Of a DNA stretch of 64,000 bases, positions 23,433-52,439 are shown piece after piece. The DNA lies in the NCBI GenBank assembly GCA_963695335.1, contig OY968764.1, forward strand, positions 192,001-256,000, given 5' to 3'. Under the pieces are notes generated by a model. The model saw only the letters and a list, made by a program, of their open reading frames with translations, made no database searches and was not told where the DNA came from. Position numbers and translations under genes: made by a program. This DNA is from an uncultured bacterium (GTDB lineage: Bacteria > Babelota > Babeliae > Babelales > Vermiphilaceae). Position 1 is the stretch's first letter, and every line of letters starts with the position of its first letter.

Positions 23433-24437
23433 TTACCACTCCAACGAACCGGCCGTTTGATATTCGGTAACGCGTGTTTCAAAGAAGTTCTTTTCTTTAC
23501 TCAAATCAGTTGATTGCGACATCCATGGGAATGGATTTTTAGTGCCATATACTTTTGGCAAATCAATACGTTCTAAACGACGATCAGCAATATATTCAAC
23601 ATATTCACAAAATTGTTCAGCATTAATACCAAGCAATCCTTGTGGGCATGCATCATGCGCATACTGTTTTTTCAAGCACAACTGCTTGTTTAATCAGTTC
23701 AACAATTTCATCTTGGAATGATTGCTGTCCAAACTTCAGGATTTTCTGCTTTAATTGTGTTAATCAAATCGCACCCAAATGCAAGATGAAGACTTTCATC
23801 ACGCATAATATATTCAAATTGCTCACCAACACCAACCATTTTATCTTGACGTTTTAATGCAAGCATCATTGCAAAACCAGCATAAAAGAAAATACCTTCC
23901 ATGATCACATAATAACCAATCAAATCATGCAAAAATTGTTGAATATTTTCTGACTGTATCGGTTTTAAAATTTGGATCAAAAATTGATTTGGTTAAATTA
24001 ACAACAAAATCATCTTTTTCTTTAATAGAAGGAATTGTTTCATACATGTTATAAATTTCATCAGGATCAAATCCCAATGAATCACAACAATAAATAAATG
24101 TATCGGTATGAATTGCTTCTTCAAATGCCTGACGCAACAAATATTGACGACATTCTGGATTGGTTACATGTTTATACACTGTCAACACCAAATTATTTGC
24201 TGTTAATGATTCTGCTGTTGAAAAAAATCCAAGATTCCATAAAATCAGACGACGTTCTGTTTCAGTTAAAACCGTAGCAGATTTCCATTGCTCAACATCA
24301 TTTTGCATAGAAACTTCTTCTGGTGTCCAGTTATTTGCAACACCATCTTTATAATGTTGACGCGCCCAGAGATAACTCATTGGTAAAATTTTATTTGGAT
24401 CGACTGTTGAATTATTAATAATTCCATTTTTATTCAT
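23433..24437 (-). CDS. nrdB: Ribonucleotide reductase beta subunit, class Ic type; frameshifted in this sequence
   Basis: [56 protein letters not shown] spread over several frames. Confidence 0.9.
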
Positions 24438-24525
24438 ATTTTTTTCCTACCGTTCCTCACTTCACAACTCATCAACAAATAAACTCTTAAAATCCTTCTG
24501 TACCTGTCAACCATACAACTGTTTA

Positions 24526-27110
24526 TTACTGACATACTTCACACTCAGGATCAGATGAAATAGTGCATGATTTACCAGCAACAATTGCATCATCCGATGC
24601 AATAACTTCTTCTGTTGCAGCACCAGCAGTTTCAACTGCTACAGTTTCAGCTGCTGCACTTTCTACTGTTTTATAATTACGTTTTTGCGTAAATCCAAAC
24701 TTCTTTGCATCAAGCGTTGATTTTTCAATCTGACTTGCACCAAGTGTACGCAAATAATAGGTTGTTTTAAGTCCAAATTTCCATGCAGTAATATAAATAT
24801 CATTCAGCTTTTTTCCCGAAACACCTTTCATAAACACATTATGCGATTGACTTTGATCAATCCATTTACCACGTGCTGCAGTAACATTAATAAGCCATTC
24901 AATGGATCAATTTCAAAGCTTCTTTATATTTATCTTTTAATCTTTGAGGAATTGCATCAATCATCTGCACATTTCCATCATAATATTTAAGCTGCTCAAG
25001 CATCTCTTGATCCCACAAACCAAGCTTTTTAAATCTTCAACCAAATATTTATTAACAACGGTAAATTCACCACTCATATTTGCTTTAACATAATATTTTT
25101 ATAAATCGGCTCAATGCAAGGGAAACAGCCTGCAATATTTGAAATCGTTGCAGTTGGTGCAATTGCCATAGTATTTGAATTACGCATACCATATTGTTTA
25201 ACATGTTCACGCACTGGAGTCCAATCAAGTTTGCCACCTACGTTGCACATTCAATTGCCATGCCACGCTCTTGTTCAAGAAATCAATGGTATCTTGTGGG
25301 AAAATATTACGATCCCATTTAGAACCTTTATATGATTGCATATGCACCACGTTCTTGTGCAAGTTGTGATGATGCAAAAATTGCATGATATGAAATCATT
25401 TCCATAATTTCATCAGAAAATTCAAGCGCTTCTTGTGATGCAAAATGCAATATCAAGCTTGATACAATGCATCCTGAAATCCCATAATCCCAAGACCAAC
25501 AGGACGATGACGCAAGTTTGCATTTTGCGCTTCTATGGTTGGATAAAAATTAATATCAATCACATTATCAAGCATACGCACTGCAGCTGTCAACCGTTTG
25601 TGCCAAGCATTGCTTCATCAAGTTTACCATCAACAACATGCTGCGCAAGATTAACAGAACCCAAATTACATACTGCTGTTTCATCTGCTGAAGTATTAAG
25701 TGTAATTTCTGTGCACAAATTTGAACTATGAACAACACCTACATGATCTTGTGGAGAACGAATATTACATGGATCTTTGAAGGTAATCCATGGATGTCCT
25801 GTTTCAAAAAGCGGCTCAACATTTTACGCCATAACTGCTTGCGCTGCAATTGTTTTATACATTTTTAATTTCACCACGATGCAGCCATCTGCTTCATATT
25901 CTTCATATCGTTCTTCAAATGCTTTGCCATAAAATGATGCAAATCAGGACTTCTTCAGGAGAGAAGAATGTCCACTCTTCATCATTGCAATAACACGCTT
26001 CATGAACAAATCAGGAATCCAATTTGCAGTATTAATATCATGCGTACGGCGACGTTCATCACCGGTATTTCTACGCAAATCAAGAAAATCTTCAAAATCC
26101 AAATGCCATGTTTCAAGATACACACACTGCTGCACCACGGCGCTTACCACTTCGATTAATTGCAGCAGTAACATCATTAGCAATTTTTAAAAATGGAATA
26201 ACTCCTTGGCTTTCTGTTTTAATAGCTTTAACCATTGCACCAGTTGCACGAATATTGGTCCAATCATTGGCAACACCGCCAGACCATTTTGAAAGCTGTG
26301 CATTATCACCAATAACATTTAAAAATATGACTTAAATCATCTTCAACCGTAGTTAAGAAAACATGAACTTAATTGCGGACGCGTTAAACCAGCATGAACA
26401 ATGTTGGCGTACTTGGCACATAATCGCAATGATGACATTACATGTATAAAAATCAAGCGGCTGCTTCATTTTTATCTGGTTCATTAATACGCAAGTCCCA
26501 TTGCAACACGCATCCAAAAAGCTTGCGGCAATTCAATATATCGTGTTTCATGCTTAAGAAAATAACGTTCATACAGCGTATTAACACCCATATAATCAAA
26601 CAGATGATCACGATCAATACAAAGTTCCTGTGCAAGATATTCTAAATCAAAACCGGCCAAACGTTCATCAAGCAGTTCAAGATCTATACCGGTTCTAATA
26701 CCATTAATAAAAGATTTACGATATGTTTCTTGACTATCACTGCGTGCAATAGAATAATGCGTAACTTGTCTAAACAGTTTTTTTAACTGTAAACGTGCTG
26801 CAACTTTACTATACGCAGGGTCACGTTCAATAAACGTGGTTGCTGCAAGCATCAAAGCATCTGCTATTGCATGAGGAGTAATGCCATCAAAAATATTTTT
26901 TAACGTTTCACTGACAATCAACTCAACATCAACAAAGGATTCATATCCAACGCAGGCCCAGCCAACCGTTCGTCGTAACCGTTGTTCACTTACTCTCTCT
27001 TTAACGCCATCAGGTTTTACCACAGAAAACATATACAAGTTATTTTCTGTTTTTTCACCCGCATCATTTATTAAAAAAGGTGCGGGTGAAACACGATTAT
27101 GCTGTTCCAT
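24526..27110 (-). CDS. nrdA: Ribonucleotide reductase alpha subunit; many frameshifts in this sequence
   Basis: ATP-cone-like N-terminus, [58 protein letters not shown]-terminal CEVCQ. Confidence 0.9.
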
Positions 27111-32318: not shown

Positions 32319-34679
32319 ATGAAAAAAACAAGTTTACTTCTTCTTTGCACCTTACTCACCAACACCACCTTTGCGCACAACATATTTGATGATGTTCGCA
32401 CCAAAAATAAAGAAGCACTCAAACAACGCTTACAAAATTGTGAAAATTGCGCAATCAAAGATGAACATGGCAATAATGCACTGCATATTGCCACACAAAA
32501 CGGTGATCAAGAAATCATTGATATACTCACTACACCTGCCACATATGAAAATTGGTCAGATTGGCTGTATGCATGGCTCTATGCACCAGTACTACCCAAT
32601 ATTGATGAACAAAACAATGACGGAAATTCGCCACTACTCTGTGCAACAGACAATGGTGATCTGACAACAGCTGAACAGTTGGTACAAAAAGGCGCTCGGA
32701 TGGATATTGTTAATAAAAAAGGATTATCTCCAGCATTTCTTGCGGTACTCAAAGATGATCCACGTTTTATCCGTGTGTTTGTAGCTCACAAACTTAATTT
32801 AGTTCAACATAAACGGAATGGTGATACTGTTTTTCATACAGCAGTAAAAGAAAAAAAACCAAATTCCATATATTATTGTGCACAGAAAACATCATTACAC
32901 AATATCACCAACAGAGATCATAAAACACCAACATTTATTGCTATTGATGCTGAAGATGATGTACTGAAAATTTTTACCAAAGAACAGCTCAACGCTTCTT
33001 CAACATCAATAGGCATAAAACCAATCCATTACGCAACACAACAGAATAAATATAACGCTATACATTATTTACTGAATAATAACATCTCTGTGAATGAACC
33101 AGATGCGCAAGGTAATACTCCAATCTTCTATGCCAATAATGAAACAACGCTCAATTTTCTTTTGCAACGCAATGCAGATATACATAAACGTAACAACAGA
33201 GGAGAAGACATTCTTGCTATTGCTACCCACAACAACAATATTCCACTTATAACCGCTCTTATGCAAAAACATAATGTTGATATTGATGCACGAGACAACA
33301 AAGGTCAAACATCATTAATGCGCGCAACGATTGAACAAAATTATGAAATGATGGCAACTCTTATAAGCAATAAAGCAAATATTCGCATCACTGATAATAC
33401 ACGCGAAAATATTCTCCATAAAATAGCGCGTAATGGTGATCAAAAAGCTGCAAGAATAGTACTTGATCATGAAAAGGCATTGCTCACGGATTTAAATAAA
33501 AACGGTGATACACCAATTTTTGTTGCTATTCAAAATGGAAATATGACATGTACTGAATTTTTGATTGATGCAGGTTCACGTATCGACACAATCAATAATG
33601 AAGGGAATACAATTCTTCATGAATTGATTAAACAAAACAATAGCTGGTTACTCACTAAAGTACTGAGAAAAATAGATTACAACATTATTAATCACAAAAA
33701 TAAAAACAGTGAATTTCCACTCTCCCTTGCAGCACAACATGATAATATTGAAGCAATTAAAGCACTCATAGTGTGCAAAGCAAATACGTATACCATTGAT
33801 GCAGATGGGAACAATATTGCTCATATTGCTGCAAAACATAGTAGTCTTAAAACGCTGCAATATCTCCAATCTCGGCAAGATCTGTTGCGATCACACAACC
33901 ATTATGGAGAAACTCCTTTTATATGTGGAGCAAAACATGGTCAACTTGAAACAACACAACTATTACTCACGGAAGAGCATTTTATCAATGGCGATGTTAT
34001 CAACCTCATTAATGCTATGAAAGATCGCTATTTTGCTTGGGATACGCATTATCACGTCTACAGTTTTCTTACCCAACAACACAATAACCGTGTATCTGAA
34101 TGCCAAAACATTGTGATAATCGCACAATCAACACAGAATATTATAAAAGAAAATAATAACATATCAAAAATAATATCTGAAAAAACATTTCAACATCCAT
34201 ATAATCCAGAATCATTAGGTTCATATTATTCAGAAAATGATCTGTATAAAATGATGCAAACAGACCGCAATAAGATTAAAAATATGTATGTAGAACGCCA
34301 AAACAGAACAATCACAACAAAAAAAGCGTTAGAGCAAAGATTTCATGCAATTACTCTCGAAGAACAAGCACGCATTGACCAGCAAAAGCAAAGCGTAGAA
34401 GAGCTCAAAGAAAAAGCACGTATTGATGCTCTCAAAGAAGAACTCATCAAAGCTGCGGCACAAAAGGCACAAGAAAAACCTGAACATAGCCCATTTGAAC
34501 CTACAATTGCTCAGGACACTGATACACAAGCATCATGCTGCATCTGCTTTGAAGATGATCAACAATTATTAAGAAAAATTCCATGCAAAAATGCACACAG
34601 TGATCATATTTGTGGAGCATGCCTCAAAGCACCATCAATTACAACATGTCCAATTTGTAGAGGACCGATAACAAAATAA
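32319..34679 (+). CDS. Ankyrin-repeat protein with C-terminal RING finger (putative E3 ligase effector)
   Basis: Signal peptide; many ankyrin motifs (GNNALHIA, GNSPLLCA, GDTVFHTA, GQTSLMRA, GDTPIFVA); C-x2-C...C-x3-H-x4-C-x2-C...CPICR. Confidence 0.9.
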   Translation: MKKTSLLLLCTLLTNTTFAHNIFDDVRTKNKEALKQRLQNCENCAIKDEHGNNALHIATQNGDQEIIDILTTPATYENWSDWLYAWLYAPVLPNIDEQNNDGNSPLLCATDNGDLTTAEQLVQKGARMDIVNKKGLSPAFLAVLKDDPRFIRVFVAHKLNLVQHKRNGDTVFHTAVKEKKPNSIYYCAQKTSLHNITNRDHKTPTFIAIDAEDDVLKIFTKEQLNASSTSIGIKPIHYATQQNKYNAIHYLLNNNISVNEPDAQGNTPIFYANNETTLNFLLQRNADIHKRNNRGEDILAIATHNNNIPLITALMQKHNVDIDARDNKGQTSLMRATIEQNYEMMATLISNKANIRITDNTRENILHKIARNGDQKAARIVLDHEKALLTDLNKNGDTPIFVAIQNGNMTCTEFLIDAGSRIDTINNEGNTILHELIKQNNSWLLTKVLRKIDYNIINHKNKNSEFPLSLAAQHDNIEAIKALIVCKANTYTIDADGNNIAHIAAKHSSLKTLQYLQSRQDLLRSHNHYGETPFICGAKHGQLETTQLLLTEEHFINGDVINLINAMKDRYFAWDTHYHVYSFLTQQHNNRVSECQNIVIIAQSTQNIIKENNNISKIISEKTFQHPYNPESLGSYYSENDLYKMMQTDRNKIKNMYVERQNRTITTKKALEQRFHAITLEEQARIDQQKQSVEELKEKARIDALKEELIKAAAQKAQEKPEHSPFEPTIAQDTDTQASCCICFEDDQQLLRKIPCKNAHSDHICGACLKAPSITTCPICRGPITK

Positions 34680-34799: not shown

Positions 34800-35072
34800 C
34801 TAATTATAAATATCTCTTCGATGACCAACGGCAGAGATACAAATTTGTTTCTTTTGACTATCAACTGAAAAAATAATTCTATAATCACCAACTCTCAATC
34901 TATAAAGATTTGGATACCCCTTCAGTTTTTTAATATCACTATTTTCATGCAAAGATACTAAAACATCTATCTGCTTTATAATAGATTTTTGGGTAGACAA
35001 AGGTAGTTTTTCGAAACTCTTATGCGCAGATTTAAGCCATACAACAATAAAATTTTCAAAATTACTAGCCAT
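34800..35072 (-). CDS. RelE/ParE-family toxin
   Basis: KKLKG...YRLRVGDYRIIF...VGHRRDIY. Confidence 0.92.
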   Translation of the reverse strand: MASNFENFIVVWLKSAHKSFEKLPLSTQKSIIKQIDVLVSLHENSDIKKLKGYPNLYRLRVGDYRIIFSVDSQKKQICISAVGHRRDIYN

Positions 35073-35293
35073 TACTTTTTCCTACTTATTTTCTTCTTAA
35101 CAGCCTCATGCGTAATATACTCATCTTCATCTTGTAATGCTTTATGAGCAATAGATCCAAAATAAAGATCTTCTATTTCTTCCAAAAGCTTTTCAAAAGT
35201 TAAAATATCAAGAATAACGCCTGTTTTTTTACCAGCTTTATCCACAATATATTGAGGAGTAATTTTAGACAAAAAAGCTTTATTTTTTAACAT
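35072..35293 (-). CDS. Antitoxin of the RelE module
   Basis: PQYIVDKAGKKTGVIL..FEKLLEEIED; overlaps the toxin start. Confidence 0.8.
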   Translation of the reverse strand: MLKNKAFLSKITPQYIVDKAGKKTGVILDILTFEKLLEEIEDLYFGSIAHKALQDEDEYITHEAVKKKISRKK

Positions 35294-35357: not shown

Positions 35358-37328
35358 TTATCCAACTAATACCAGCAGCAATGAAACAATAGACATCAAC
35401 TTAATTAAAATATTAAGCGCTGGTCCAGATGTATCCTTGAAAGGGTCGCCCACCGTGTCACCAATAACAGCTGACATGTGTGCAACAGATCCTTTGCCAC
35501 CCATGTGACCCGCTTCAATATATTTCTTAGCATTATCCCATGCACCACCAGCATTTGCCATCAACAGTGCAAGTAAAACACCTACAACGGTTGAACCAAC
35601 AAGTACACCACCAAGAACATGAATACCAAGTGTATATTTAACAACAACTGGAACAGAAATTGTTAACACACCAGGCAACACCATTTCTTTTAATGATGCT
35701 TTGGTACTGATCGCAACACAACGTTCATAATCAGGTTGTGCTGTACCCGCCATAATGCCAGGAATTTCTTTAAACTGACGACGAACTTCCATCACCATTT
35801 TCATTGCAGCATCACCAACAGAACGCATAGTAAGGGCTGAAACAACAAATGGAACTGTTCCTCCAATAAAAATACCGATCAAAATATATGGATCTAAAAC
35901 ATTAAGCATTTCAATATTTGCTTGTTGCGCATATGCAGAAAGTATTGCAAGCGCAGTAAGCAATGCTGAACCAATTGCAAAACCTTTACCAATTGCCGCA
36001 GTGGTGTTACCTAATGCATCAAGTTTATCAGTAATTTTTCTGACTTCTGGTCCAAAACCTGCCATTTCAGCAATACCACCAGCATTATCTGCAATAGGAC
36101 CATATGCATCAACAGTCATAGTAATACCCACCGTTGCAAGCATAGAAACTGCTGCAATAGAAATACCGTATAATCCACCGTAATAATGCGCTGCTAAAAC
36201 AATAAGTCCTAAAATAATAACCGGAGCAGCCGTTGATTCCATACCAACAGAAAGACCATAGATAATATTAGTTGCTGCACCAGAACGTGAAGTTTCAGCA
36301 ATGTTAATGACTGGTTTGCCACTTGTATAATATTCAGCAACTGCACCAATCACAACACCAGACAAACAACCAAGTGCAATGGGGATAAATAGTTCCATTG
36401 CAACACCATGGACCGTTTGATACCAATATGTTCCACCAAGAAATGCTACAATCGCCACATAGGTTGCATTACGTAACATAGCTGCAGGACTGCTCTGTAA
36501 AACTAAATTGAAAAGTAATCCTACAACAGAACTGATTAAACCAATTCCTGCAAGTACTAATGGGAACAACACATATTGAGGTGTCATTTGTGAACCAATT
36601 GCCAAAATTGCTGTTGAAACAATTGCTCCAACATATGATTCATAAATATCAGCGCCCATACCTGCTGTATCACCAACACAATCACCAACGTTGTCAGCAA
36701 TTACCGCTGGGTTACGAGGATCATCTTCTGGAATACCTGATTCCACTTTACCCACCAGATCAGCTCCAACATCTGCTGATTTTGTGAAAATACCCCCACC
36801 AACACGTGCAAAGAATGCAACTAAACTTGCACCAAGGCTAAAACATGTTAATAAGGTAACAAATTCAGGATGATCGCCAAATAAATAAAAAATTTTGACA
36901 AGCGCAAGTAAACCAAAACTTGCAACAGCAAAACCCATTACACCACCACCATAAAATGCAACCATAAACGCAGCAGATTCACCACCTTCACGTGCTGCAC
37001 TTGTTGTGCGTACATTTGCAGATGTCGCTGCAATCATTCCAACAAAACCAATTAACATAGAGATAAATGCGCCAGAAACAAATATAAGAGCCGCTAACCA
37101 ACTCTTAAATATTACTCCTAAAATAATTGCAACAACAGCAACCACCATTGCAATTACTCTATATTCTTCACGTAAAAACGTCATTGCACCTGCATGAATT
37201 GCAGCTGCAATCTGCTCGGCTTTGTGATTATTAACCGATAATCGGTTAATCGAACAAAATAAAATTGCTACGACCAGCAGGCCGAGCAATGCTATCATGC
37301 CCAAAACTATTAAATGCATCAAAATCAT
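35358..37328 (-). CDS. hppA: Membrane-bound pyrophosphatase, K+-dependent, probably Na+-translocating
   Basis: [63 protein letters not shown]. Confidence 0.96.
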
Positions 37329-37486
37329 ATTCCTCCCTCAATAAAAATATACACTTTTTTAATACGCATATGATTGTACGATCAAATGGCCTTTCTGTAA
37401 ATACAACAACTGTAAAAAAAAATAACTACTCAACAAAAAAACCCTATTTTTGCAAACAAGGGTTTTTTCTATTTCAAGTATATCAA

Positions 37487-38353
37487 TTATAATTTGGAGG
37501 GTTTCACTCTTTTCAAATAAGCATCCCAGCCGGCTTTTTTATAACGTTGTGCTTCTACAAGCGGATCTTTGGCTTGCAAAATACCTCTGCCAACAATAAT
37601 AATATCACTACCAAGTTCATTGATAACTTTATCTGGAGTTAAATATTGTTGCCCAAATGCATCACCACCTTCAGCCATTTGCACACCAGGAGTAAAATGA
37701 AGCAATCCAGGATTATCAGATAATTTTTCGCGACAAATAACACCAATAACATTATTTGAATGTTGCAACGCTAATTTGACTGTGTGTGTTGTATAATCAC
37801 CTTGCGCAAGCGTGTTGGCGCTACTCATTTGTGCAAGTAAAAGAAATGCTGCATCTTTTGTTTTTTCTGTTGATTTAAGTGCTTGCAATGTACCATCACC
37901 TGCTATGCTGTGTACGGTAACCATATCAGCCCAGTCTGCAATGCGGAATATTCCACCGGTGTATTGTTTTAAAGCAATCGTTCCGATATCAGCAAATTTA
38001 CGATCTTCCCAAATTAAAAAATTATGTTTCTTCGCAAGAGCACACAATTGTGCCGGAAAATCTTTATCATAATCATCAATTGCATCACAATGTACTTTTA
38101 AAACAGATATTTCTGGCCCAACCAAATCTGCCAACTCAAAAAGCTTATTCTTTTGTGTAACATCTGCGGAAAAGATAAGATTAGTTTTTTTTGCATCCAT
38201 AATAGTGAGCAAACGTTGTGCAATCGGATTAGTGCAATAAGTTGCACGTTGCTTATATGTTAATACTTTATCTTGGAAATCCATTGCGATTAGACGAGAA
38301 CAATTACTCAAACAAACGATAAGTGTTATTAAAACAAAACATTTTTTAAACAT
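37487..38353 (-). CDS. pyrF: Orotidine-5'-phosphate decarboxylase (UMPS/eukaryote-like type) with N-terminal signal-like extension
   Basis: KKTNLIFSADV, LKVHCD, EDRKFADIG, TPGV, GQQY.TP, IIVGRGI. Confidence 0.93.
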   Translation of the reverse strand: MFKKCFVLITLIVCLSNCSRLIAMDFQDKVLTYKQRATYCTNPIAQRLLTIMDAKKTNLIFSADVTQKNKLFELADLVGPEISVLKVHCDAIDDYDKDFPAQLCALAKKHNFLIWEDRKFADIGTIALKQYTGGIFRIADWADMVTVHSIAGDGTLQALKSTEKTKDAAFLLLAQMSSANTLAQGDYTTHTVKLALQHSNNVIGVICREKLSDNPGLLHFTPGVQMAEGGDAFGQQYLTPDKVINELGSDIIIVGRGILQAKDPLVEAQRYKKAGWDAYLKRVKPSKL

Positions 38354-38375
38354 GTATATAGTTTTTTCTTTTTAA

Positions 38376-40001
38376 TTATAATTTACTACGTGATTGTAAT
38401 TGAAATGTTTTATATAAGCTCAATAACTCTTGCAACATAAACAGCGCATGGAAATTATATCCTGCTTTCGTAATATTTTCTCTCCCACCTTGCTGGCGAT
38501 CAATAAGTCCAATAATATCTTTAACTTGCAAACCAGCAGATTCTACTATTTTAACCGTTTCTAAAACACTTGAACCTGTCGTTATAACATCTTCAATAAT
38601 CAAACATTTTTGCCCTGATGTATACACACCTTCAATCATCTTTTTTGTTCCATGATCCTTTGCTTGTTGACGCGCCATCACCATTGGTATACCTGAAAGC
38701 ATAGAAAGCATAGTAGTTATTGGAACTGCTGCATACGGCACAGGACACAATACATCTGCACCATATTGTCGTTGAATACCGTTAAAGCACAGAGCCAAAT
38801 CGCGTAAAATATCTGGATGTGATATTGCAAGGCGCATATCAACATAATTATTTGAACGAATACCACTTTTCAAAACAAAATCACCAAACTTAATAACACC
38901 AATATCAAACAATTTATGAGCTAACTTTTCTTTACGTGTATGTTTTATCAATGCTTGTTCATGATATTGTGCTGCAAGACATGGGTTACTCATCATACCG
39001 GTTGCAGCAAGTGCAACCGCTGCACCTGCCTTCAAAAATTGTGAAAAATGAGATGGCATAGTAATTCCTCCTACTCCTAAAAGGACAAGATTAAGATTTT
39101 CTTTGTGTATGATTGTAGAAGCTCTGTTTATAAAATCAAGCGCCAATTGCCGAATAGGCGCCCCTGAAACTCCAGCCATAATGCGTGTGCCAAATGTTGG
39201 GCAACCATCACTGTTAATAACTTTCATCGGAACAGAATTAATACCAACAACACCTCTGACACCGGCTTTTGCAGCTGCAATTAACGCAGACTTCATTACT
39301 GAAACATCTGTAAAAACACCACATTTTATAATTACTGGAACATCAGATGTAACCGTTTGTACCACATTGTGCGCTATAACAAAAATATCATCAGGTCGTG
39401 TATATATTGGTTCGTTATGGGTATTTAAATTGGGACATGAAAAATTTGCTTCAATAATATCTGCTCCACTATCCTTTGTTAATTGCGCTGTTTTTATCCA
39501 TTCCTCAACACTGTTACCAAATATAGAAACAATCAGAACCTGACCTTCTAATAAAGATTGTTTAGCTTTTGTAATATCGTTACGTGTATATTCACTATCC
39601 ATAGATGGATTGCCAAAAGAATTTGCAAGAGAAATCTCTGCAATGTTTTCGGGTTTCTTGTTGTATGCCATCACTGTTTTACCAATATCATCATATGTTA
39701 ATGGTGAAGATCTTTGAACATATCGTATATTCGGTGCCGGATGTGCATCATGTTCATAACAACGAACGGTTTTATACGTTAAAACATCATAACCTGATCG
39801 CGCTGCTAACCAAATTCCTTTACTATCAGTGGTTGCACGTGCAGATATTCCAATAGGTGAAGCAATTTTATACCCAAGAAAATCATGCCAATCTTCTTTG
39901 GGTGCGCGATGAATTATTGGCAATTTGATTTCAGCAGTGTGAACTAATGGAATAATGGTCATGCACAACAATAATACACATCTGAATATCAATAATCTCA
40001 T
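38376..40001 (-). CDS. Dihydroorotate dehydrogenase-like / orotate phosphoribosyltransferase fusion with signal-like leader
   Basis: N-part: SPIGI, TYKTV, NSFGNPS, EANFSCPN, GVSG, GVGGI. C-part: FGDFVLKSG, VPYAA, KDHGT, LIIEDVITTGSS. ATG 40001 after GGGAG. Confidence 0.88.
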   Translation of the reverse strand: MRLLIFRCVLLLCMTIIPLVHTAEIKLPIIHRAPKEDWHDFLGYKIASPIGISARATTDSKGIWLAARSGYDVLTYKTVRCYEHDAHPAPNIRYVQRSSPLTYDDIGKTVMAYNKKPENIAEISLANSFGNPSMDSEYTRNDITKAKQSLLEGQVLIVSIFGNSVEEWIKTAQLTKDSGADIIEANFSCPNLNTHNEPIYTRPDDIFVIAHNVVQTVTSDVPVIIKCGVFTDVSVMKSALIAAAKAGVRGVVGINSVPMKVINSDGCPTFGTRIMAGVSGAPIRQLALDFINRASTIIHKENLNLVLLGVGGITMPSHFSQFLKAGAAVALAATGMMSNPCLAAQYHEQALIKHTRKEKLAHKLFDIGVIKFGDFVLKSGIRSNNYVDMRLAISHPDILRDLALCFNGIQRQYGADVLCPVPYAAVPITTMLSMLSGIPMVMARQQAKDHGTKKMIEGVYTSGQKCLIIEDVITTGSSVLETVKIVESAGLQVKDIIGLIDRQQGGRENITKAGYNFHALFMLQELLSLYKTFQLQSRSKL

Positions 40002-40104
40002 AACTACTCCCTTTTTTAAAAAATAATATGTTGAAGCTTGAAAAGACGCCCAAGACATATTAGATTTGTTGAGAAATTTATACAACCATAAAAAAGGAAG
40101 CTGT

Positions 40105-40983
40105 ATGCAAGATACATTGATGTACGATTATATCGCCAAAAGAATGCGAACGTTTTTTCTCGAACAAAAAAATTTTGTTGAAGTGCCTGCACAGTCACGA
40201 CTCTCTATTTTAGCCGCATGCGAAGATCCCAAAACTATTACTCAATTTGTTTTCAGCGGCGTCAATTATCCACTCCCCCAAACAGGCCAAATGTGGCTTG
40301 AAGTTGAACTACTTAAAAATCCAACGCTCCCGGGAGTGTTCTGTGCAACAACAAGTTATCGCAATGAACCGTTCCCTATTCCAGGTCGTCACGATAAAAT
40401 TTTTCCGATGATAGAATTTGAATCACATGGCACCATTGATGAGATGAGAAAATTGGAAGCAGAACTTCTTGAATTTCTTGGTTTTGAAGCGCCAGTATGT
40501 GTGCAATACAATGATATTTGTAAACAATACGAAACTGATAATATTAGTGCAGAATACGAAACACAAATGGCACGCGATATTAGCCCAGTGATTAGTCTTG
40601 AAAATTTCCCAATACGTACACATCCATTTTGGAATATGAAGCATAACGCAGAAGGCATTTTTAATAAAATTGATGTGATTTTATACGGCATGGAAACAAT
40701 AGGATCAGCAGAACGCTCAACAAATGTTGAAGAAATGCGTGATTACTTCTTTAATATTTCCAACGGCCAGTATGCACAGCTATTGTTCAGCTCTTTTGGT
40801 AAAGACCGCGTGATCAAAGAACTTGATGAATATTTATCATTGCCTATGATTCCACGCTTTGGAGGTGGCATTGGAGTTACGCGTATGGCACGTGCTATGG
40901 CACTGGCTGGTATTGGTCCTAAAGTTGCAAACACAGATTTTATCAAGCCACAACCGAACCGCATACACGAACAACAATTATAA
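40105..40983 (+). CDS. Class II aaRS-related protein (AsnRS catalytic core only, no anticodon domain)
   Basis: FVEVP, LPQTGQMWLE, SYRNE..GRH...EFE, PFWNM, ETIGSAER, PRFGGGIGVTRM. Confidence 0.75.
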   Translation: MQDTLMYDYIAKRMRTFFLEQKNFVEVPAQSRLSILAACEDPKTITQFVFSGVNYPLPQTGQMWLEVELLKNPTLPGVFCATTSYRNEPFPIPGRHDKIFPMIEFESHGTIDEMRKLEAELLEFLGFEAPVCVQYNDICKQYETDNISAEYETQMARDISPVISLENFPIRTHPFWNMKHNAEGIFNKIDVILYGMETIGSAERSTNVEEMRDYFFNISNGQYAQLLFSSFGKDRVIKELDEYLSLPMIPRFGGGIGVTRMARAMALAGIGPKVANTDFIKPQPNRIHEQQL

Positions 40984-45326: not shown

Positions 45327-46379
45327 TTACGCTAACGTATACCAAATAGCACGACCTTTTCCATGTCGCATTATATATTTTTGATCAATTAAAAAATTCA
45401 AATGTTTTTTTATAGTACTACGTGAAGCATGTGTAATTTGTACAATGTCGACCATGGTAGCTCTATTTTTCTGCTGAATCAATTGTAAAATATCTGCTGC
45501 CAATGGAGGCACCGATGGACGCGCTATTTGTTCATGTTTTATTTTGACTTCTAAATGTTCAATTTGTTTAACCAAAGAACGTAAAAAATAAAGCAACCAT
45601 GGATCAAAATCTGGCGTCTTTGTTTTAAATGTTGTTTGTGTACGCCGCAGGGCACGATAATACCCTTCTTTGTTGTGCTCTATAATTGATTCTAATGCAC
45701 TGTAAGAAACATATGAATAATCAGACTTTAATAAAAGTAATGTTGTTAAAACACGCGATAATCTGCCGTTACCATCTTGAAAAGGATGAATTGCTAAAAA
45801 TACAACTATAAAAACAGCTATCACAATCAATGGATTCAATGAATGGCTCATTAAAGCATTATTAGTCCAATCAACAAGTTGTTCCATTTCTCGTGGGGTA
45901 TCAAATGGTGATGAAGTTGCAAAAACAATACCTAGTGACTTTCCTTGTGAATCAAAAGCCTCAACGTTATTAGGATGTTTTTTATACTCGCCGCGATGGC
46001 GCATATCTTTTGTTGAATACTGAAGCAACATGGCATGTAATTGCTTAATATAGTTTTCAGTCAAAGGGATATATTCATAACTTGCAAATACTTCCTCCAT
46101 AACATATCCATATCCTGCAATTTCTTCTTCATCTCGAGATTTAAATGATTTTGTGGTAAGACCTGACAATAATGCTTCTACTTCGCGATCTGAGAGCTTT
46201 GCCCCCTCTATTCTGGTAGATGATCCTATGCTCTCGATAGTAGCAACATAACGTAATCTTTTAAGTTGCTCTGGCGCCAAACTATGCTTTAATGTGGGCC
46301 ATGCATCATTAAATGTATTAATTTTGTCGATCAATGCTTGCAGTTCCGCAGAAAGTGTTATTTTCTCAATTTTAATCAT
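45327..46379 (-). CDS. Fic family protein with C-terminal wHTH
   Basis: SIGSSTRIEG and HPFQDGNGRLSR. Confidence 0.93.
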   Translation of the reverse strand: MIKIEKITLSAELQALIDKINTFNDAWPTLKHSLAPEQLKRLRYVATIESIGSSTRIEGAKLSDREVEALLSGLTTKSFKSRDEEEIAGYGYVMEEVFASYEYIPLTENYIKQLHAMLLQYSTKDMRHRGEYKKHPNNVEAFDSQGKSLGIVFATSSPFDTPREMEQLVDWTNNALMSHSLNPLIVIAVFIVVFLAIHPFQDGNGRLSRVLTTLLLLKSDYSYVSYSALESIIEHNKEGYYRALRRTQTTFKTKTPDFDPWLLYFLRSLVKQIEHLEVKIKHEQIARPSVPPLAADILQLIQQKNRATMVDIVQITHASRSTIKKHLNFLIDQKYIMRHGKGRAIWYTLA

Positions 46380-50001: not shown

Positions 50002-52439
50002 ATGATCTCACGAATTCTCGCGAAAATAGTCGGCACCAATAATGAACGTCAATTAAAAAAAATGCTCCCCATTATTGAAAAAATTAATGCTCTTGAACCT
50101 TCAATGCTCGCATTAACCAATGAAGAGCTTGCTCATAAAACCATTGAATTTAAAGAACAAATCTCTGCCGGCAAACATTTAGATACTATTCTGCCGGAAA
50201 CTTTTGCCGTTGTGCGTGAAGCAGCTCGCCGTACACTTGGTCAACGCCACTTTGATGTGCAGTTAATGGGTGGTATTGTTTTACATCAAGGAAAAATCTC
50301 AGAAATGAAAACAGGTGAAGGTAAAACGCTCACCGCAACACTCCCTCTCTATCTTAATGCCTTAGCTGGCAAAGGCGCCCATCTTATCACCGTCAATGAT
50401 TATCTTGCACGCCGTGACTCTGAATGGATGAGTCCTGTGTACAGCTTTTTGGGTTTAAGAGTTGCATGTCTTCAAAACGCAATGAATGATACAGAGCGTA
50501 AAGATGCCTACCAAGCAGATATTTTATACGCAACTAATAATGAACTTGGATTTGACTATCTACGCGACAACATGAAATTCCGTGAAAGTGATCTATGTAC
50601 AACGCGAACTTTCTTTTGGTATTGTTGATGAAGTGGATTCAATTTTAATTGATGAAGCTCGTACTCCACTCATTATTTCTGGCAGTTCAGAAGAAGTTTC
50701 ATCATTATACCGCGATGCCGACAGGGTTGTTTCTTATCTTGAAAAAAATGTTGATTATGAAGTTGATGAAAAAGCCCGCAACGTTATCTTAACTGAATCT
50801 GGTATTGATAAAGTTGAAGCGGCTTTTAATATCAAAAATCTCTTTCTTGTTGAGTACATGCAACTATTACATCACATCAACCAAGCATTACGCGCGCATT
50901 CCCTTTTTAAACGAGATGTTGAATATGTTGTTGCTGATAACCAAGTGCTTATTGTGGATGAATTTACCGGACGTATTTTACCAGGACGGCGCTATAGCGA
51001 TGGGTTGCACCAAGCAATTGAAGCTAAAGAAAATGTAGAAATTGAACGAGAAAGCCAAACATTAGCAAGTATCACATTACAAAACTTTTTCAGACTTTAT
51101 AAAAAACTCGCTGGTATGACTGGTACTGCTGCAACTGAAAGTGAAGAATTCCATAACATTTATAAACTTGATGTTATTTCTATTCCAACAAATCGCCCTA
51201 TGACTCAGAAAAGATATGCCTGATCTTATCTTTTTGACAAAAAATGCAAAATACAAAGCTATTATAGAAGATATCACTGAGCGTCATAAAAAAAATCAAC
51301 CAGTTCTGATTGGTACCATTGCAATTGAAACATCAGAACTATTAAGTGCAATTTTAACAGCAAGTGGTATTCGCCATGAAGTGTTAAACGCAAAACAACA
51401 TGCACGTGAAGCGGAAATTATTGCGCATGCAGGAGAACCTGGGCGTATCACCATTGCAACTAATATGGCTGGCCGTGGTACAGATATCAAACTTACTCCA
51501 GAATCTATTCAAGCAGGAGGTTTATATATTCTTGGAACTGAACGTCATGAAAGCAGACGTATTGATAATCAGCTGCGTGGACGTTCTGGACGTCAAGGCG
51601 ATCCAGGTGAATCACGATTTTACATATCTCTTGAAGATGATCTTGCACGTATTTTTGGTGGAGATTCATTAAAAAACAAAATGGTGTTTGTGGGAATGCA
51701 AGAAGATGAAGTGATTGAATCCGGCTTGGTTTCTCGTACCATTGAACGCGCTCAAGAACGTGTAGAAAAACATAACTTTGACAACCGTAAACATCTACTT
51801 GAATATGATGATGTGCTTAATCAGCAACGCATCGTAATCTATAATCATCGTCTTGATGCACTTGCTGGTGAAAACCGCATTTATGAACTGATTCGTGATT
51901 TTATTATCACGATTGTACAAGATCTTGTAACGTATAATGCGCCACAAAACACACTCAAACAAGAACAAGTTGCTAAAATTTACGAAGCATTGGTATATAT
52001 TACTGGCCTTAAACAAACAGATTTTTCTGCTGCAGGCATTAGCACTTCTAACAGTGAGCTGTTCCAAAAGGATCTTATTAATTTTATTCTTGAACAATAC
52101 GACCTGTATCGCAGAAAGTTCAATGAAAACATTATTAAAAATGCGGAAAAGTGGCTTGTTTTAGAAACAATTGATCAAGCGTGGCGCCAGCATATGCTTA
52201 ATCTTGATCATCTTAAAGAAGGCATTGGATTGCGTGGATGGGGACAAAAAAATCCACTTATTGAATATAAACGTGAAGCATTTGATATGTTCCGTGAAAT
52301 GATGTCACATATCCGTTTTGATATTGTGCATCACATATTCCATCTGAACCTCACACAATTTAATGAACAAGAACTTGAGCAACGCCGTGATGCTGAGCTT
52401 GAGCATCTCAATCTCTCCGGCACTGGCGATCCAGCATAA
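50002..52439 (+). CDS. secA: Preprotein translocase SecA; two apparent +1 frameshifts (near 50593 and near 51206)
   Basis: [75 protein letters not shown] across three ORFs. Confidence 0.95.

Follow-up and report, generated by a model that had tools for sequence, protein, structure and literature searches.

Viral auxiliary metabolic genes are parasite-encoded enzymes that raise nucleotide flux in the host, and their products are made on host ribosomes without export. Babelota form a group of bacteria that live inside protists. The closest described parallel to the locus reported here comes from microsporidia, in which a secretion signal on the cytosolic enzyme hexokinase has been proposed to boost host biosynthesis, nucleotides being imported by the parasite (PMC3514677, PMC6460350). 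Among the Dependentiae, Chromulinavorax destructans carries predicted signal peptides on 44% of its genes and remodels the mitochondrion of its host (PMC6561590), and in seven TM6 genomes parts of a type II secretion system (T2SS) and ATP/ADP translocases belong to the core, nucleoside biosynthesis genes being absent (PMC4776705). The secretome of this group has been described in terms of proteases, nucleases, hydrolases and ankyrin proteins (PMC6561590, PMC4776705), and Babelota have been located in the host cytoplasm by FISH (PMC12172432).

The window analysed here is the whole 64,000-nucleotide stretch C1:192001-256000 of a 1.37-Mb single-contig genome (94% complete), whose named relatives are Babeliales/Dependentiae. 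A first-pass annotation had described a two-gene unit encoding a DHODH-like/OPRT fusion and an OMP decarboxylase (ODC), and both its domains and its coordinates agree with our analysis. The pyrD-pyrE fusion (38376..40001, minus strand, 541 aa) consists of a leader, a class-1 DHODH-like barrel and an OPRT, as indicated by its DHO_dh and Pribosyltran domains and by a structural model. The co-oriented pyrF, 22 nt away (37487..38353, minus strand, 288 aa, OMPdecase domain), encodes a leader followed by a UMP-synthase-type OMP decarboxylase with the motif DRKFAD. An inverted repeat with A/T tails, terminator-like and seen in the sequence, lies 3' of the pyrF stop (37435..37468, no strand assigned); it is absent from the terminator-scan list, and the promoter and terminator scan of the locus gave chance-level output. 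On the other side of the unit lies a stand-alone AsnRS-like catalytic core (asparagine-synthetase-A-like; 40105..40983, plus strand), a gene that is tightly linked to the module across the phylum and yet has no leader. The idea that this protein cyclises carbamoyl-aspartate as a substitute for PyrC is unsupported: ATCase is missing too, module genes adjoin the AsnRS-like gene at 0/80 viral loci, and one phage copy adjoins tRNA-Asn.

The OPRT domain (38379..38939, minus strand, PRPP-binding motif IIEDVITTGSS) and the ODC both score above their family cut-offs (TIGR00336, 136 bits against 106.8, and TIGR01740, 173 bits against 92.3), with catalytic motifs present. In the PDB both are matched best by domains of UMP-synthase type, and animal UMPS is 51-55% identical to them, so that the eukaryotic likeness noted at first pass holds for the structural matches; it is not exclusive to eukaryotes, since similar bacterial ODCs reach 53-56% identity, equally close leaderless ones among them. 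A "eukaryote-type" OPRT or ODC is thus not necessarily host-derived, and a direct host origin is unsupported. Animal UMP synthase (OPRT-ODC) and its bacterial kin are the closest structural and sequence matches to both domains but differ in architecture, OPRT and ODC being split here, OPRT being joined to DHODH and each chain bearing a leader.

The DHODH-like domain (38952..39932, minus strand), delimited by alignment, profile and Foldseek searches, has the features of class 1 DHODHs, namely an FMN TIM barrel, a catalytic Cys and the conserved Asn/Lys set, and its residues K77, N127, G130, N186, C189, N191, K226 and N255 are kept across 56 sequences. In an alignment with DHOD A, N127-S-F-G130 falls on N67-S-M-G70 and C189 on C130, at a weak E-value of 0.03. 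Profile searches ranked DHOD B above dihydropyrimidine dehydrogenase and the latter above class 1A, and Foldseek placed dihydropyrimidine dehydrogenase on top. With Lactococcus DHOD A and DHOD B, trypanosomatid DHODH and dihydropyrimidine dehydrogenase the barrel shares the FMN barrel, the NxSCPN Cys motif and the substrate-binding Asn set, but it differs from class 1 DHODHs and dihydropyrimidine dehydrogenase by its low identity (17-24% in structural matches), by the lack of PyrK, the class 1B hallmark (found in 0/20 genomes with the module), by its fusion to OPRT (in relatives also to ODC) and by its leader. A class 2 enzyme or a membrane anchor was rejected, the catalytic residue being Cys189 instead of Ser and residues 1-21 being unfolded in the model. 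The barrel is, by prediction, a divergent soluble class-1 enzyme, and the genomic context makes dihydroorotate its likely substrate. A quick DHODH tree, whose leader labels are confounded by database start calls, contains a leaderless sister clade of 27 rows that includes a Rhabdochlamydiaceae protein.

Leaders were called with a custom rule (a basic n-region and an uncharged hydrophobic h-region, with a small residue at -1 in the tested leaders), applied to 1262 predicted proteins of at least 80 aa from our own gene calls. The rule fires on 438 of them (35%) and on 4 of 4109 internal-Met controls, and the N-termini of the fusion and of the ODC both pass it as Sec-type leaders, which bears out the hydrophobic leaders reported for both proteins. 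Because 35% of the proteome has leaders, a leader alone says little. Calls on LDH and G6PD were discarded as false positives of the rule, their domains beginning at residue 5-7. The predicted signal peptide of the fusion comprises residues 1-22 (39936..40001, minus strand; leader rule, model and relatives), the cut being tentatively placed behind Thr22, at the position of Ala/Thr-Met-Glu in relatives; AlphaFold models residues 1-21 at pLDDT <50 and apart from the barrel. That of the ODC comprises residues 1-23 (38285..38353, minus strand; leader rule and alignment) and ends in Ala, so that Met24 would start the mature chain. Neither leader contains a lipobox Cys or a twin-Arg motif, and a lipoprotein or a Tat substrate was rejected.

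The genome uses Shine-Dalgarno sites, and one of them, GGGAG (40007..40011, minus strand), precedes the leader ATG of the fusion and pairs with the 16S tail of this genome at -8.1 kcal/mol, no in-frame start past the leader being stronger than -3.3. Consequently, a gene-calling artefact is rejected for the fusion and true starts downstream of its leader are not indicated. For the ODC the sites do not discriminate, that of the leader ATG being weak (-1.1) and level with that of inner Met24 (-1.0); in three relatives read at the DNA level the leader ATG has -4.6, -5.6 and -6.0, and one of them also has -5.4 at the inner Met. An artefact is nevertheless unlikely for the ODC, as the properties of its leader are conserved. 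Among stand-alone ODCs, the leader is present in 12 of 15 that are closely related and in 0 of 87 that are distant. Across 13 ODC leaders identity is 39% (72% for the enzyme), and yet 155 of the 156 residues in the h-regions lack a charge, Ala stands at -1 in 12/13 and Met at +1 in 11/13. Under neutral drift simulated to equal distance, the share of open frames that kept the leader properties was only 9-39% per lineage, a comparison in which the ODC leader lineages are related to each other. The ODC leader is thus apparently under selection, conserved in its properties through 60% divergence, and the alignment of orthologs suggested at first pass came out in favour of conservation. On the DHODH side conservation is partial: 29 close relatives comprise 9 full leaders (one counted by eye after being missed by the script), 17 short Met-rich stubs without basic residues and 3 without leader according to database starts. 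Some stubs are start-calling errors, and three read at the DNA level are real starts after a stop.

The PyrF leader had also been noted to end in the same "-Met" as effector-like proteins of the window, and this resemblance extends genome-wide. Among the 384 leader proteins that lack later membrane helices, 190 have [AGSC]-Met at residues 14-33, against 36 of 551 non-leader proteins, and the motif is followed by Glu or Asp in 101 of the former and 6 of the latter. In the eukaryotic cytosol, chains that begin with Met-Glu or Met-Asp are stable and become acetylated. In 110 motif genes the ribosome-binding site averages -5.6 at the leader ATG versus -1.4 at the inner Met, and sites of -4 or stronger occur at 73% of leader ATGs, 5% of motif Mets and 20% of other inner Mets. 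Since the site precedes the leader ATG and not the Met, the leader-Met is a feature of the protein and not a relic start; the relic-start explanation is rejected genome-wide, though it holds for single genes. The motif is present in 1/17 hand-picked envelope-type proteins, in 10/20 cytosol-type or repeat proteins (a few of the matches falling inside the h-region) and in 22/34 proteins of the largest cluster of leader-bearing paralogues.

The gene-content searches of the source genome were run alongside 14 reference genomes, 11-14 of which gave a positive control (6 for pyrK). As the first pass had proposed to check, we looked for the upstream pathway and for translocases: ATCase (pyrB), amidohydrolase/pyrC, carA and pyrK were not found in the source genome, in which two TLC nucleotide translocases are present. 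Nor did the searches find uridine kinase, pyrH or any amino-acid-kinase family member, or PRPP synthetase, the last also sought by tblastn and with a profile from 21 fetched ORFs and found in 0/10 other genomes of the genus. CTP synthase (PyrG) and cmk are present, and Cmk could phosphorylate UMP. In the bacterial cytoplasm, the module would therefore, on this gene content, be without both substrates and without the usual kinase for its product. The eukaryotic cytosol has cytosolic CAD, PRPP synthetase and UMP-CMP kinase. Regarding secretion, signal peptidase I (LepB) is encoded, as are GspD, GspC and two T2SS-E-family ATPases, a candidate outer-membrane route; secA is in three pieces in the source assembly and whole in 3/4 same-genus genomes, so that we read the split as probable assembly indels. 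A Pfam scan of 222 representatives (at least 170 aa, first 400 residues) of the 317 clusters formed by 441 leader-like proteins revealed further leadered, cofactor-dependent enzymes (UDP-glucose dehydrogenase, PEP synthase, myo-inositol oxygenase, enoyl-CoA hydratase, acetyl- and methyltransferases and PP2C); ribosomal, tRNA-synthetase and RNA-polymerase families were not found among the representatives scanned.

Of 261 genomes across the phylum, 20 encode an ODC and 27 the barrel; the module is organised as separate genes, as DHODH-OPRT, as OPRT-ODC or as triple fusions. The 20 module genomes contained ATCase and carA in no case and an amidohydrolase in one. Among the 19 that could be scored, leaders are on all genes in 6 (two of these judged by eye), on some in 6 and on none in 7. 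Both PRPP synthetase and pyrH are present in 5 of the 7 leaderless module genomes, and at least one of them is missing in 5 of the 6 fully leadered ones, a trend that two genomes (G254 and G070) break and in which kin genomes are not independent. In G254 the module is a triple fusion without leader, and neither PRPP synthetase nor pyrH was found there; the missing enzymes therefore do not force export. Both exported and cytoplasmic versions of the module seem to exist, as 7/19 modules are leaderless. In three loci of one genus (g29) only the OPRT is leadered and its inner Met retains its own ribosome-binding site. Modules with a leader on only one step sit awkwardly with the view of an exported pathway.

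The leadered module is not special within the phylum. All 13 strong-scoring PRPP synthetases that were read (of 16) are leadered, whereas 8 of the 10 weaker-scoring ones read are without leader. All 15 full-length IMPDH-family genes have a hydrophobic leader (11 by the rule, 15 by eye), and APRT, GuaA and a PurF-like protein are also leadered; in one cluster (genome G222), purB and purC-like genes without leaders stand beside leadered guaA and guaB. As controls in 30 genomes, CTP synthases were leadered in 0/29 cases, and adenylate kinases in 4 of 27 read (30 loci), 3 of the 4 being extra copies accompanied by a leaderless one. Leaders are thus placed on supply enzymes and spare copies and not on the copies needed inside. 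By eye, no transporter appeared as a conserved neighbour among the genes listed around 18 modules.

The predicted export of both enzymes is well supported, if indirectly, because the ODC leader is conserved, a Shine-Dalgarno site precedes the DHODH leader and housekeeping nucleotide enzymes behave differently. Of the three destinations first proposed (periplasm, vacuole or host cytosol), the host cytosol fits best, since the genome has translocases, whereas pyrH, PRPP synthetase and the enzymes upstream of the module were not found. The placement of Babelota in the host cytoplasm by FISH (PMC12172432) is in keeping with this destination. On balance we lean towards the reading that both enzymes are exported to the host cytosol and would there convert dihydroorotate and PRPP of the host into UMP. 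The proposal of an exported pyrimidine module thus stands in part: the conserved leaders and the contrast with housekeeping enzymes speak for it, and the 7/19 leaderless modules and the ordinary status of the module within the phylum temper it. Each chain would pass through Sec and be cleaved by LepB, and release would probably follow through the T2SS or in vesicles; FMN loading must come after export, because Sec exports unfolded chains. In the host cytosol dihydroorotate would be converted to orotate, OMP and UMP, host kinases would raise UMP to UTP, and the parasite translocases would import UTP, from which parasite PyrG would form CTP. Cleavage, outer-membrane passage, destination and direction of flux are steps that we infer, and the electron acceptor may be fumarate or oxygen, PyrK being absent. 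The mitochondrial DHODH of the host is respiration-linked, and a soluble DHODH would bypass this coupling and could free the UMP supply from it. Such a bypass would fit the remodelling of the host mitochondrion described for the relative Chromulinavorax (PMC6561590).

The other readings differ in where the enzymes would act and on what. That they are mainly cytoplasmic, or dual, working on imported dihydroorotate and PRPP through inner starts or poor export, with Cmk acting on UMP and leaders easily gained and lost, appears unlikely to us. The leaderless modules, 5 of which coexist with both PRPP synthetase and pyrH, agree with it, as do leaderless G254 with neither, the stub leaders of many DHODHs, the presence of cmk and the inner Mets preceded by a separate ribosome-binding site in several OPRT, PRS and GlmU genes; the source genome, however, has no strong inner start past either leader, inner Mets lack a site genome-wide, the ODC leader has held its properties through its long divergence, housekeeping pyrG and adk do not acquire leaders, and no conserved transporter was seen around the modules. 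There is a rather small chance, in our estimate, that the proteins are exported by Sec and then retained, whether as periplasmic or surface proteins, within outer-membrane vesicles or in a vacuole, host dihydroorotate and PRPP leaking in and UMP being made beside the parasite transporters. A Sec leader per se reaches the periplasm only, and a T2SS substrate signal is unreadable from sequence; moreover, vesicles have been observed in Chromulinavorax (PMC6561590) and microsporidian hexokinases concentrate in a surface coat (PMC6460350). Against retention, the +1 Met motif sets both proteins apart from envelope residents, and imported UMP or uridine would be without the usual onward route, pyrH and uridine kinase not having been found in the source genome.

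It is improbable that the exported proteins serve another function, with the barrel catalysing a dihydropyrimidine dehydrogenase, oxidase or reductase reaction, or with the module draining or rebalancing host pyrimidine intermediates. The top Foldseek match, the missing PyrK partner and the occurrence of the barrel gene also where ODC was not found are in line with such a function, but many relatives have the barrel joined to OPRT and ODC, its Asn and Cys positions align with those of DHOD A (with the weak E-value given above), and the profile search puts DHOD B first.

Export of both enzymes to the host cytosol, our preferred reading, would resemble the microsporidian case in that an obligate intracellular parasite unable to make nucleotides carries a secretion signal on a cytosolic enzyme; as far as described, that case concerns a eukaryotic parasite and one glycolytic enzyme, with signals tested in yeast (PMC3514677, PMC6460350), whereas Babelota are bacteria in which several enzymes, at committed steps of nucleotide synthesis, are concerned, here on the evidence of sequence. 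Unlike the products of viral auxiliary metabolic genes, Babelota enzymes must cross two membranes. The Dependentiae Sec secretome belongs to the same phylum, but the accessible parts of its descriptions mention neither leadered biosynthetic enzymes nor the +1 Met motif, and a search of mainly open-access main texts turned up no account of nucleotide enzymes with leaders, or of this motif, in Dependentiae. Parasite-secreted metabolic enzymes and a large Dependentiae Sec secretome are therefore known, and what would be new is their extension to nucleotide synthesis in bacteria.

We tentatively propose, at somewhat less than even confidence, that Babelota outsource nucleotide synthesis: enzymes drawn in varying combinations from one set (PRPP synthetase, APRT, IMPDH, GMP synthase, DHODH, OPRT and ODC) would be exported to the host cytosol and the triphosphates re-imported, the soluble DHODH would free the UMP supply from the host mitochondrion, and the Met exposed after cleavage may mark host-bound cargo or mimic a native host protein. 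The clade is in any case a source of natural DHODH-OPRT-ODC triple fusions. Part of a mostly uncharacterised Babelota secretome would gain functions, and the leader-Met motif may offer a sequence rule for host-bound cargo of the Sec/T2SS route. Genome-based metabolic maps presume that an enzyme acts in the cell that encodes it; if the leaders do export, the orphan pathway fragments of Babelota would be host-rewiring effectors, bacterial equivalents of the microsporidian hexokinase and of viral auxiliary metabolic genes.

The window encodes, near the module formed by the DHODH-OPRT fusion and the ODC, a stand-alone, leaderless AsnRS-like core (40105-40983, forward strand) for whose product fold comparison gave AsnRS as the nearest fold. 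We found this core at most three genes from the module in 13 of the 18 related loci (L027, L029, L030, L032-L035, L037-L039, L041, L042 and L044) and, in every one of these 13, on the strand opposite to it. At the level of genomes, the core is present in 19 of the 20 that contain ODC versus 22 of the remaining 241. Viruses are also rich in its close relatives, and none of the 80 viral loci examined carries pyrimidine genes beside them.

The architecture of the module varies among relatives. Natural triple fusions of DHODH, OPRT and ODC are encoded at three related loci (L027, 3112-5646; L037, 5935-8307; L042, 5972-8389), the triple fusion of genome G092 is grouped with pyrG, IMPDH and an AsnRS-like gene, and the domain order is reversed (ODC-OPRT) in protein P0138. 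In two genomes, an additional OPRT with a leader lies immediately upstream of the DHODH-OPRT fusion (L035, 5524-6222; L247). Upstream of DHODH, four modules contain a gene judged by eye to be nitroreductase-like (L028, 8478-9047; L038, 8932-9576; L043, 9528-10139; L044, 8366-9010), which has a leader in two of the four and whose product is a possible flavin or electron partner.

Predicted leaders were also found on other enzymes. Babelota possess a second, leader-bearing PRPP synthetase (loci L045-L055 and L144-L154), which in several genomes is preceded by an NrtR-like leaderless regulator and transcribed divergently to an APRT gene that also encodes a leader. Adenylate kinase likewise occurs as a second, leader-bearing copy beside the leaderless housekeeping one (group of loci L174, L198, L201 and L202), and the sole adenylate kinase match of genome G209 carries a leader. 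The window's own genome (G000) encodes leader-bearing PEP synthase (C1:1078537; L129, 5744), myo-inositol oxygenase (C1:1131184; L132, 1) and UDP-glucose dehydrogenase (C1:273187; L087), together with a GlmU (C1:591430) that has two starts, each behind a ribosome site, one with a leader and one without. Genome-wide, about half of the G000 leader proteins show at the predicted cut a small residue with Met directly after it, and often Glu after the Met; this motif is rare in the envelope proteins of G000.

Elsewhere in the window, secA is split into three pieces (50002-52439), and fragmentation also affects the genes for ribonucleotide reductase (23433-27110), breaks that are probably assembly indels; secA is intact in three of four genomes of the same genus. 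Immediately downstream of pyrF lies an H+-pyrophosphatase gene (35358-37328, reverse strand), and the reverse strand also encodes a ParE/RelB-like toxin-antitoxin pair (34800-35293) and a Fic-HTH protein (45327-46379). Finally, the forward-strand product of 32319-34679, which combines a leader, ankyrin repeats and a C-terminal Cys/His-rich tail judged RING-like by eye, is likely a host-directed protein of the ubiquitin-ligase type.
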